From Gammaproteobacteria bacterium (GTDB lineage: Bacteria > Pseudomonadota > Gammaproteobacteria > Eutrophobiales > Eutrophobiaceae), in contig JBBDSH010000081.1 of the NCBI GenBank assembly GCA_040905045.1, positions 18,919-82,918 on the forward strand: a stretch of DNA of 64,000 bases, read 5' to 3'. Below, piece after piece: positions 48,014 through 49,806 of the stretch; position 1 is the stretch's first letter, and the number at the start of each line of letters is the position of its first letter. The position numbers and the translations under genes were made by a program. The notes beneath the pieces were generated by a model. The model was given only the letters and a program-made list of their open reading frames with translations, was not told where the DNA came from and ran no database searches.

Positions 48014-49494
48014 CGGACATACAACTGGTCGATGTTTCCATACGCGACGGCAACCAGAGCCTGTGGAGCGCCACCGGCCTGAGCACGCGGCAGATCCTGC
48101 AGATCGCACCGGTGGTCAACCGTGTCGGGTTCAAGTGCCTGGACTTCACCTCCAGTACCCACATGGCCGTGGCCGTGCGCTATTTCAGGGAAGATCCCTG
48201 GGAGCGTATCCGCCTCATGCACGCCGCCTGTCCCGATACGCCCCTGCAGTTGATTACTACCGGCTTCCGCTTCATCTCCTGGGAAACGGCGGACTATGAT
48301 TTCATGCGTCTGGTTTACCGGACACTGATGAAGAACGGCATCGGCCGTTTCATCCTGCTGGATCCCATGCACGACATGGACGCCCTGCTGGCCGGCGCGC
48401 GCATTATCAAGGAGGAAGGCGACGCCGACGTCATGGGCGCCCTGACCTACACCGTCAGCGATGTGCACGACGATCAATTCTACGCCGACTGCACCGCGCA
48501 CATGGCCGCCTCACCGGATGTGGATCTGGTCTACATCAAGGATCCGTCCGGCCTGTTGACACCGGAACGAGCACGTACCCTGGTGCCGGCGGTGCAGAAG
48601 GCCGCCGGCGACATGCCCGTTGAGATCCATTCCCACTGCACCATCGGCCTGTCCCAGTTCAATTATCTGGTCGCCGCCGACGCGGGCATCGACGTCATGC
48701 ATACGGCCGTCGGGCCGCTGGCCAACGGCAGCTCCCTGCCGCCGGCGCGGCAGACCATCGACAATCTGCGCGCCCACGGCCATCAGGTTCACGTCAATGA
48801 AAAAGCGCTGCAACAGATGACGGATTATTTCACGGCCCTGGCCCGGGCCGAGGGCCTGCCCGCCGGCATGCCCCAGGCCTACGACGCCCGCTTCATGCGC
48901 CACCAGGTGGCCGGCGGGGTTATGACCACGACGCGGCGGCAACTGGCCGAGGTGAACCTGGAACACCGCTTCGACGAAGTCATGGAAGAGGTGGAACGGG
49001 TACGCACGGAGCTGGGCTCGCCCATCATGGTGACGCCGTTCCCGCAGATCGTCTGCACCCAGGCCACCTTCAACGTTATCGGTCCGGAGCGCTACGCCAA
49101 TGTCCCGGATCAGGTAGTCCGATACGTGCTCGGCCGTTTCGGCCGGCCCACCGCGCCGGTGGACGAAAATATCCTTGATAAAATAATGTCTCTGCCGCGT
49201 ACAAAAGAAATCCAGCAAGAACCGACCAGCATGGCACTGGAAGATATCCGCAAGCAATTCTCGAAGAATCTTTCCGACGAGGAATTCCTGTTGCGTGCCG
49301 TCATGCCCCAGGAACAGGTGGACGCCATGCTCGCCAACAGTCCTTCCCGAACCCGTTACAATTCACGCCTCAGTCCCGTTGTGAAACTGATAAAGGAAGT
49401 CAGTCAGCGGCCGGGCGCCAGGGAACTCAATCTGGAAAAAGAGGGCTTCAAACTGCGCCTGCGCGGGAACGGAAAAGTAAGGAGTGAGGCGTAA
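48010..49494 (+). CDS. carboxyltransferase subunit, pyruvate carboxylase B / oxaloacetate decarboxylase alpha-like (HMGL-like TIM barrel), without a biotinyl domain
   Basis: VDVSIRDGNQSLWSA...KCLDF N-terminus typical of PycB/OadA carboxyltransferase. 494 aa with no C-terminal biotinyl domain. The last 6 codons and the stop are encoded by the repeat arm. Confidence 0.8.
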   Translation: MTDIQLVDVSIRDGNQSLWSATGLSTRQILQIAPVVNRVGFKCLDFTSSTHMAVAVRYFREDPWERIRLMHAACPDTPLQLITTGFRFISWETADYDFMRLVYRTLMKNGIGRFILLDPMHDMDALLAGARIIKEEGDADVMGALTYTVSDVHDDQFYADCTAHMAASPDVDLVYIKDPSGLLTPERARTLVPAVQKAAGDMPVEIHSHCTIGLSQFNYLVAADAGIDVMHTAVGPLANGSSLPPARQTIDNLRAHGHQVHVNEKALQQMTDYFTALARAEGLPAGMPQAYDARFMRHQVAGGVMTTTRRQLAEVNLEHRFDEVMEEVERVRTELGSPIMVTPFPQIVCTQATFNVIGPERYANVPDQVVRYVLGRFGRPTAPVDENILDKIMSLPRTKEIQQEPTSMALEDIRKQFSKNLSDEEFLLRAVMPQEQVDAMLANSPSRTRYNSRLSPVVKLIKEVSQRPGARELNLEKEGFKLRLRGNGKVRSEA

Positions 49495-49806
49495 GAAGTG
49501 AGGAGTTGGTTAACGTATCGTCATGCCGGTAAATACGGACCGTTTATCCGGCATCCAGCCGAGGTTTAACCAGGCTTTATCTCTCAGACTACGCGGAGTT
49601 CGCAGAAGCCAATAAATCGTCATCCCAGCGAATGCTGGAGGAGAAGCACAGGCACGTACCGTTAGCGGGCTAAGGATGTAATCCAGTACATTAAATTTTC
49701 CTTATTTTGATGGACCAGAGTACGGAATAAAATTGTTTACTGGATTACAGTCTGATGCGCTGGAATGACGGTTTTTACTCCTCACTCCTTACTTCTTACT
49801 CCTCAC
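49476..49806. repeat. split heptamer-hairpin element: arms separated by a 266-bp internal segment
   Basis: Left arm agtaaggagtgaggcgtaagaagtgaggagttgg (49476-49509). Right arm tactcctcactccttacttcttactcctcac (49776-49806). The arms overlap the stop codons of the convergent carboxyltransferase and MDR genes. Confidence 0.75.

Follow-up and report, generated by a model that had tools for sequence, protein, structure and literature searches.

Convergent genes with stop-codon heptamer arrays on both sides of a mosaic spacer carrying a lineage-specific 157-bp segment

In the 64,000-nt stretch of gammaproteobacterial DNA presented above, hereafter the window, the gap between a carboxyltransferase gene and a convergent dehydrogenase gene is flanked on both sides by complementary tandem heptamers, and the question raised by this locus is how such a long-range inverted repeat came to enclose about 270 nt of DNA. 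Coordinates given here are those of the window, whose sequence is abbreviated W in comparisons, while L-numbers (L003, L009 and so on) denote the compared loci or contigs. The original prediction regarded the arrangement as one heptamer-hairpin element split by a 266-bp structured insert, which was proposed as candidate cargo or a small regulatory RNA (sRNA). Our analysis indicates that the feature is probably a convergent-gene intergenic region bounded by two gene-terminal arrays of the unit GTRAGRA, in which a conserved core and a 157-bp gain form a mosaic that likely contributes a 3' structure to the transcripts. Overall, the spacer is ordinary but fast-changing and repeat-rich, and its 157-bp part is an orphan without sign of function.

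The locus is not an assembly artefact, since positions 49400-49900 were found exactly in an independent Logan assembly of run SRR27977661. Its placement in a convergent gap between carboxyltransferase and MDR genes was borne out by domain matches to PYC_OADA and HMGL-like on the plus strand and to ADH_N and ADH_zinc_N on the minus strand, and the expectation that the insert holds no plausible open reading frame (ORF) also stood, no ORF longer than 37 amino acids being present between the arrays. Two arms of 30 nt each, 83% complementary and separated by 270 nt, are present as described, but the 266 bp assigned to the insert are not a single unit and resolve into a 102-nt core and a 157-bp indel. 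The predicted hairpin atgccgg-N18-ccggcat was recovered (ATGCCGG at 49523-49529 and CCGGCAT at 49548-49554; M1 below). The second predicted stem exists too, although it is a perfect 12-bp stem (TGTAATCCAGTA at 49677-49688 with TACTGGATTACA at 49738-49749) with 49 nt between its arms and not an 11-bp stem with a gap of about 56 nt; stems of at least 12 bp with loops of at most 120 nt are rare, with five across the 64 kb. The loop lengths of 11-27 nt attributed to other copies were close to the 33 and 18 nt obtained with the present array boundaries.

Matches to GTRAGRAGTRAGRAGT with up to two mismatches occur 31 times in the window versus 0.16 expected, and at all five array loci, on a rough gene map, an array of 4-8 units begins at or within a few bases of its gene's stop codon, in sense orientation. 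Read in sense (G-TRA-GRA), the unit contains TAA or TGA in all three frames as well as an AGGAG-like motif, whereas its complement is open in all frames; therefore, each array closes any reading frame that enters it. The C-terminal tails of carboxyltransferase homologues are variable beyond a conserved ...LRLRxNG. At this locus the two arrays form a long-range inverted repeat because their genes converge. Moreover, partner arms are 0.83-0.90 identical, while non-partner arrays at unrelated loci reach 0.93, so that, as judged from the sequences, the left and right arms are not a matched pair and their complementarity follows from the shared consensus. The unit has no run of three or more G and hence no G-quadruplex potential. 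As a separate observation, it looks like a chain of Shine-Dalgarno sequences (TAAGGAG, TGAGGAG), its complement resembling the 3' tail of 16S rRNA.

This placement extends well beyond the window. At least 120 loci (L015-L134) in GTDB representative genomes matched 3.3 strict units, and the matches listed include Planctomycetota, Cyanobacteria, Gemmatimonadota, Acidobacteriota, Bacteroidota, Firmicutes, and Beta- and Gammaproteobacteria. Among the matches listed, pooled with the window, an ORF of at least 100 codons ended between -30 and +12 of the array start for 92 of 171 arrays (54%), versus 6.9% at random positions, and the modal stop offsets of +1 and +8 correspond to the TRA of the unit itself. 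Single arrays had a gene end in sense in 61/124 cases and in antisense in 8/124, and neighbouring arrays up to 600 nt apart were convergent in 32 cases, divergent in three and on the same strand in eight; the modal array length was four units (n = 187 arrays). Convergent pairs in the same pool had spacers of 1-404 nt in a distribution without a gap (260 nt in L066 and 163 nt in L113), which places the 267-nt spacer of the window pair in the upper tail of that range. Single arrays without a partner also occur, for example at 24288-24343 and 37140-37181 of the window. Considering that the arms lie at their own stop codons, that single arrays exist, that partner arms are no more alike than others and that spacers range continuously in length, the splitting of a pre-existing short-loop hairpin is not needed to explain the locus.

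Two further observations concern the DNA beside these arrays. In distant phyla (Hymenobacter being one example), at L061 (5979-6092), L095 and L104, the DNA between convergent GTRAGRA arrays is a long inverted repeat carrying GTCATCCTGAGCGAAGCGAAGGATC, which resembles the GTCAT-hairpin modules of the window locus. Additionally, among the matches listed, the 80 nt past the arrays show a roughly 4- to 6.5-fold enrichment of a related motif, GAGCGAA / GCGAAGC (GAGCGAA 6.5-fold), which is present in only 6 of 172 flanks.

Comparison with relatives, taken from the 90% protein cluster and from homologues of the dehydrogenase, revealed the composite nature of the spacer. L009 and L149 are two samples of one sister lineage, with a dehydrogenase gene 85.6% identical in nucleotides to that of W, and have the same convergent pair with arrays on both sides, as in W, but an intergenic region of 160 bp versus 308 bp; W and L009 both keep the array pair, with a right arm of different length. 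The alignment contains one 157-bp indel (window 49607-49763), which is absent from L009, L149 and L011, the last of these being represented by a 63-nt tail only. In the empty allele of the L009 type 114 nt still lie between the arms. The junction reads TTCGCAGA / TATGATGGTTTT in L009 and TTCGCAGA / AGCC...GCGCTGG / AATGACGGTTTTT in the window, and the L011 tail is colinear with the short allele, with a continuous junction TTCGCCGG / TATGATGA. That the L011 tail might carry the start of the insertion (from ATCCAGTA) was considered and rejected, as, by hand count, 18 of the first 22 nt of the tail agree with the short allele and 12 of 22 with the window. A neighbour-joining tree of the dehydrogenase gene from five taxa had the topology (L013,((W,L009),(L011,L012))), under which one gain in the W lineage is therefore more parsimonious than two losses, and the 157-bp segment is most parsimoniously read as an insertion gained in that lineage. 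The idea of a second element placed within a hairpin loop was supported in so far as the spacer contains a real, lineage-specific insertion, but one of 157 bp and not of 266. Relatives retrieved by the carboxyltransferase protein at about 80% amino-acid identity have other downstream genes and synteny and are uninformative for the spacer, and L010 and L150 are without the array. In L007 (7500-7682), a relative at 77% identity, a different tandem repeat with units of about 17 nt (CCCCTTGTCCTCCCGAG) comes after the carboxyltransferase gene and continues to the contig end.

The inserted segment has an internal architecture of its own. Together with nine flanking bases it is, by its pattern of repeats, an asymmetric inverted pair, in which two related units of 73 and 35 nt lie on either side of an AT-rich loop. 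The outer ends of the two units share an 18-mer with 15/18 identical positions (0.11 chance matches expected), and the inner ends share a perfect 12-mer. The insertion separates the GTCAT head of an older small module from its hairpin; L011 has this module in intact form (ATCAT-ACCGGCG-AA-CGCCGGT-ATCCAG), while L009 and the window have degenerate versions of it. These features could suggest that the 157-bp segment, or the unit at 49616-49772, is a miniature non-autonomous element (MITE- or REPIN-like) moved in trans by a transposase: its size is fitting, the outer inverted repeat (ATCGTCATCCCAGCGAAT with ACCGTCATTCCAGCGCAT) and the perfect inner stem are of the right kind, it is present or absent among close relatives, and two inverted related units resemble a REP doublet. 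However, the empty sites already contain the outermost 9 nt of the right repeat arm (49764-49772, AATGACGGT), which read TATGATGGT for L009 and L149 and TATGATGAT for L011, and therefore the ends of the inverted repeat are offset by 9 nt from the ends of the indel. Besides, no target-site duplication was found, the junctions TTCGCAGA / AGCC... and ...GCTGG / AATGACGG being without a flanking direct repeat.

The recurrence expected of a mobile element was not observed in the sequences searched. No second copy of the spacer or the insert was found in the window by blastn with a word size of 7, so the similarity search proposed originally, run within the window, recovered the insert neither alone nor with arms; when the spacer was compared with all window intergenic regions and with the loci of the relatives, L009 was the sole match. 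The sequence CGTCATNCCNGCG occurs once in the window, at this locus, and a dispersed family of GTCAT hairpins was not found there. The scans of genome and metagenome collections required exact matches to short patterns, and of the source genome the 64-kb window was searched. Within this scope, the exact 11+11-nt stem pattern had no match in GTDB representative genomes, and a 10+10-nt exact pattern had 14 matches in JGI metagenomes, about the estimated chance number and none with extended similarity. Plasmid and phage collections contained no copy of the insert by sensitive blastn, and two patterns gave chance matches or none in viral contigs. We regard a mobile miniature element as distinctly unlikely, and the notion of a family with long and short MITE-like forms found no support in the window and the collections searched.

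The remaining part of the spacer, the 102-nt core (49505-49606), is shared with L009 and is also present in L149. Its identity between W and L009 is 87.6%, while four-fold-like third codon positions of the flanking genes are 65.1% and 71.5% identical, and therefore the core is either constrained or recently homogenised; of these, it appears to be under constraint. No conserved reading frame was found in the core, as read from the ORF list and the L009 locus. Separately, two copies of a hairpin family built from tandem 9-mers (GATCTCGCCAAG CGCGCAAAG ... CTTGGCG ATCTTGGCGAGATC) lie at 35760-35835 and 61646-61726 of the window, and their GCGCAAAGTTCGCAGAG resembles the conserved ACGCGGAGTTCGCAGA of the spacer core (49591-49606).

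The more distant relatives give some indication of how the spacer arose. In L013, with 82% dehydrogenase protein identity, a HAD-family hydrolase gene (5043-5888) lies between the carboxyltransferase and dehydrogenase genes, a heptamer hairpin with a 43-nt loop is found just past the carboxyltransferase stop and the dehydrogenase stop has no array; L003 also has the HAD gene (7460-8311), and one homologue is a carboxyltransferase-HAD fusion. The HAD gene was therefore lost in the W clade, and the present spacer (49495-49802) formed after the loss. A search for a remnant, by tblastn of the HAD proteins of L013 and L003 against the W and L009 spacers, gave nothing better than E ~0.05, and the possibility that the spacer is a pseudogene remnant of the lost hydrolase was rejected on this absence of residual translated similarity.

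In a strong form of the original prediction, it is conceivable that one L013-like hairpin grew by successive insertions from its 43-nt loop to 114 nt (L009 type) and then to 270 nt (W), the deletion of the HAD gene having brought the far arm to the dehydrogenase. The order of the L013 locus, with the hairpin directly past the carboxyltransferase stop, then the HAD gene and then an array-less convergent dehydrogenase, would suit such a course, as would the array fused to the dehydrogenase stop in 4/4 HAD-less relatives; stops in three frames would let an array tolerate any deletion end point in the last codons, and the last step, the 157-bp gain, is documented. Nonetheless, the L013 loop showed no similarity by eye to the L009 or window core, the sequences being unaligned, and partner arms have no special similarity. 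Other loci often have a single array at a stop codon or a convergent pair in which each arm adjoins a stop, so that two independent arrays explain the layout equally well. Stepwise growth from a single hairpin is in our view doubtful.

The pace of change at this spacer is evident from L011 and L012, whose dehydrogenase genes are 95.5% identical in nucleotides, yet whose sequences are wholly different just past the array; the spacer therefore rearranges quickly. In L012 (1880-1929) the M1 hairpin loop (16/16 nt, E = 4e-6) lies on the strand opposite to that of L009 (1907-1922), and L011 (3240-3271) is without this opposite-strand loop. The layout of L012 fits either an inversion of the spacer between inverted arrays or a shuffling of modules, as far as the alignments indicate. 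A bolder proposal is that the inverted heptamer arrays are active recombination substrates and not passive 3' structures, and that they enclose a cassette site with fast turnover, which inverts (L012 versus L011) and gains modules (the 157-bp inverted doublet of W) while keeping a constrained core of about 100 nt. If so, GTRAGRA pairs would parallel, across phyla, the mosaic and recombination-driven intergenic elements of Neisseria, and they might be served by an enzyme of their own and act as a switch on both converging genes, although we consider this proposal very unlikely.

Whether the spacer is instead a functional RNA signal, either an sRNA or a dedicated bidirectional intrinsic terminator, was considered from its folding potential. 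Fold z-scores were -7.2 (plus strand) and -6.8 (minus strand) for the spacer with its arms and about -3 to -4 without the arms; the position in a convergent gap, the conservation of the core beyond synonymous-like sites, the four U after the long-range arm stem (minus strand) and the five U after the outer stem of the inverted pair (plus strand) are all compatible with such a role. However, the 157-bp segment alone had z-scores of -3.5 (plus) and -1.9 (minus), which are unremarkable because other 3' intergenic regions of the window ranged from -3 to -16, and the segment is lacking in the sister lineages. Rfam yielded nothing for the whole window at gathering thresholds and two noise hits for the region at E <=10, no covariation was seen, and a scan of 49300-50000 identified no sigma-70-like promoter and no canonical terminator, leaving as terminator-like features just atypical large stems with short U-runs after them. 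Both the sRNA or cargo role of the original prediction and a bidirectional terminator therefore failed to find support, and an RNA signal of this kind is the least probable of the explanations that we weighed.

We thus return to the bounded mosaic as the preferred reading. Under this reading, each array, lying at the stop of its own gene, closes the incoming reading frame, and the 157-bp segment was gained inside the older module, after its GTCAT head and before its hairpin. RNA made from either gene may then fold its arrays and inner hairpins into one large 3' structure which, by analogy with REP/BIME sequences, could impede 3' exonucleases, shield the 3' ends of the mRNAs and reduce read-through from one converging unit into the other. 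The 157-bp piece itself is unlikely to be a gene and would most likely be a neutral gain, through hairpin-templated or ectopic recombination or as a low-copy or rare non-autonomous element.

Several points weigh against this explanation. The polarity of the indel depends on a five-taxon, single-gene tree and on just 63 nt of L011, and the high identity of the core could reflect gene conversion or recent spread and not selection. No compensatory base changes were detected for any helix, the core being covered by just two distinct sequences, and one of the differences between W and L009 weakens hairpin M1. The role of the arrays at the RNA level is purely what we infer; the consensus terminator scan mentioned above was empty, and since short-loop copies lie inside operons, such structures cannot be strong terminators. 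Finally, a transposon-like origin would also fit the 15/18 outer inverted repeat.

The features of the locus and the other GTRAGRA arrays of the window, listed where at least three heptamer units were present, are compiled in Table 1.

Table 1. Positions of the flanking genes, of the parts of the spacer and of the GTRAGRA arrays in the window
Feature	Position	Strand	Description
Carboxyltransferase gene	48010-49494	+	PYC_OADA and HMGL-like domain matches; last codons KVRSEA and TAA stop inside left heptamer array
MDR-type (zinc-type) alcohol dehydrogenase / quinone reductase gene	49803-50822	-	ADH_N and ADH_zinc_N matches; convergent with carboxyltransferase gene
Left heptamer array	49477-49506	+	GTAAGGA GTGAGGC GTAAGAA GTGAGGA GT; sense for carboxyltransferase; holds its stop codon (49492-49494)
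Right heptamer array	49777-49806	-	Minus strand GTGAGGA GTAAGAA GTAAGGA GTGAGGA GT; sense for dehydrogenase; first unit gives TGA stop (49803-49805)
Conserved spacer core	49505-49606		102 nt; fully conserved 25-mer GTTGGTTAACGTATCGTCATGCCGG, hairpin M1 (49523-49554), GGTTTAACCAGG, fully conserved 17-mer TACGCGGAGTTCGCAGA
Lineage-specific 157-bp segment	49607-49763		Boundaries good to 1-2 nt; lacking in L009, L149 and L011
Long unit of inverted pair	49616-49688	+	73 nt; starts ATCGTCATCCCAGCGAAT, ends TGTAATCCAGTA; contains small hairpin CCCAGC-GAAT-GCTGG
AT-rich loop	49689-49737		49 nt, between the 12-bp stem arms
Short unit of inverted pair	49738-49772	-	35 nt; minus strand ACCGTCATTCCAGCGCAT CAGAC TGTAATCCAGTA
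Single array	24288-24343	-	After minus-strand gene ending at 24357
Single array	37140-37181	-	After minus-strand gene ending at 37188
Array pair, short-loop hairpin	39234-39261 / 39295-39329	+ / -	39295-39329 follows minus-strand gene ending at 39330; loop 33 nt
Array pair, short-loop hairpin	46499-46526 / 46545-46572	+ / -	46499-46526 follows plus-strand gene ending at 46495; loop 18 nt
Array pair, this locus	49477-49504 / 49772-49806	+ / -	Carboxyltransferase TAA stop in third unit; dehydrogenase TGA stop in first unit

Other repeats were noticed in the window. A perfect 45-bp inverted repeat (26135-26179 and 26291-26335, with 111 nt between) lies in a co-directional intergenic region with a fold z-score of about -15.6; its arms contain tandem CACAGAG-type 9-mers, and a similar AGCCACAGAGGACACAGAGGGACACAG is found past the dehydrogenase stop in L150 (1568-1597). 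Adjoining the single array at 37140-37181 there is a 62-nt direct repeat (36842-36903 and 37076-37137), 90% identical at a spacing of 234 nt, which looks like a 234-bp tandem duplication that takes in the beginning of the gene downstream and has inner sub-repeats of 115-117 nt and a 43-nt inverted repeat. A second type of heptamer hairpin occupies a divergent intergenic region (63192-63256 and 63310-63340), where five copies of GTGGCTG and 4.6 of TCGGGGA are followed 53 nt downstream by a complementary array (CGAGCCA, CGAGACC ...); its TCGGGGA is similar to the G-rich heptamers found in Xanthomonas and Nostoc.

For annotation, these results mean that two gene-terminal arrays, and not a split element, can underlie a long-range inverted repeat found where genes converge, and that the C-terminal residues and stop codons of both flanking genes may be encoded by the arrays, as they are here. 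The locus also offers a small natural series for spacer evolution, from gene loss to an array-flanked spacer and on to inversion and insertion. The more interesting by-product of the analysis is the cross-phylum placement of GTRAGRA arrays at stop codons, the 157-bp insertion giving no sign of a gene. No description of the GTRAGRA unit was found in the literature by sequence-string and keyword searching, and the family extends a little-studied class of bacterial gene-end heptamers with a new unit that combines three-frame stops and a ribosome-binding-like motif and occurs in many phyla.

Among known systems, the REP/BIME sequences of enterobacteria and the REPIN doublets are intergenic, 3'-proximal hairpins and mosaics of short modules, which are transcribed in mRNA 3' ends and stabilise the upstream message; REPs are imperfect palindromes of 20-40 nt, present in high copy and linked to RAYT transposases. 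The 157-bp segment is like a REPIN doublet in being an inverted doublet of related units, but it is single-copy in everything searched, and the arrays of the window, unlike REP sequences, are tandem heptamers. Neisseria intergenic mosaic elements (NIMEs) consist of units of 50-150 bp separated by dRS3 inverted repeats. Short modules of the form GTCAT-stem-loop-stem-ATCCAG recur at the present locus in a comparable manner (M1, the L011 module and the two insertion units), and their content varies between close relatives; the resemblance is nevertheless one of motif and layout only, given the lack of a dispersed module family in the window. We know of no recombinase linked to the hairpin modules of this locus. 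When CATTCCCGCGAAAGCGGGAATC was used as a literature query, the sole match was a Neisseria gonorrhoeae paper.

Tandem heptamers are known from several bacterial groups, and the short ones of cyanobacteria are usually labelled STRR. Direct repeats of the heptamer TAACTGA occur in Beggiatoaceae, Cyanobacteria and Bacteroidetes, mostly just upstream of start codons and with one indirect repeat versus 169 direct sets, and a post-transcriptional role has been proposed for them (MacGregor 2015, PMC4679880). GTRAGRA arrays share with these repeats the intergenic tandem arrangement, the TAA and TGA within the heptamer and a patchy distribution across phyla, whereas they start at stop codons and often pair in inverted orientation (compare PMC4679880). 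A closer parallel in placement is provided by the heptameric simple-sequence repeats (SSRs) at gene ends, GGGAATC in Xanthomonas and GGGGA(T/C)T in Nostoc (Rehm et al. 2015, PMC4692102), of which the Xanthomonas type, single or paired, is mostly kept between species while the length varies (PMC4692102). Like those arrays, GTRAGRA repeats are 7-nt tandem units with a mode of four, are intergenic and on the coding strand, where they overlap the stop codon or lie no more than 50 bp from it, and frequently form convergent plus/minus pairs able to fold into stem-loops. The retention of the pair in both W and L009, with right arms of different length, is a further similarity. Unlike them, GTRAGRA has no G-tract and provides stops in three frames together with a Shine-Dalgarno-like AGGAG, it is found in many phyla, and the spacer at the present locus, which few of those seen match in length, contains a lineage-specific insertion (compare PMC4692102). 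Taken together, GTRAGRA arrays fit the architecture of gene-terminal heptameric SSRs but form a different class of unit.

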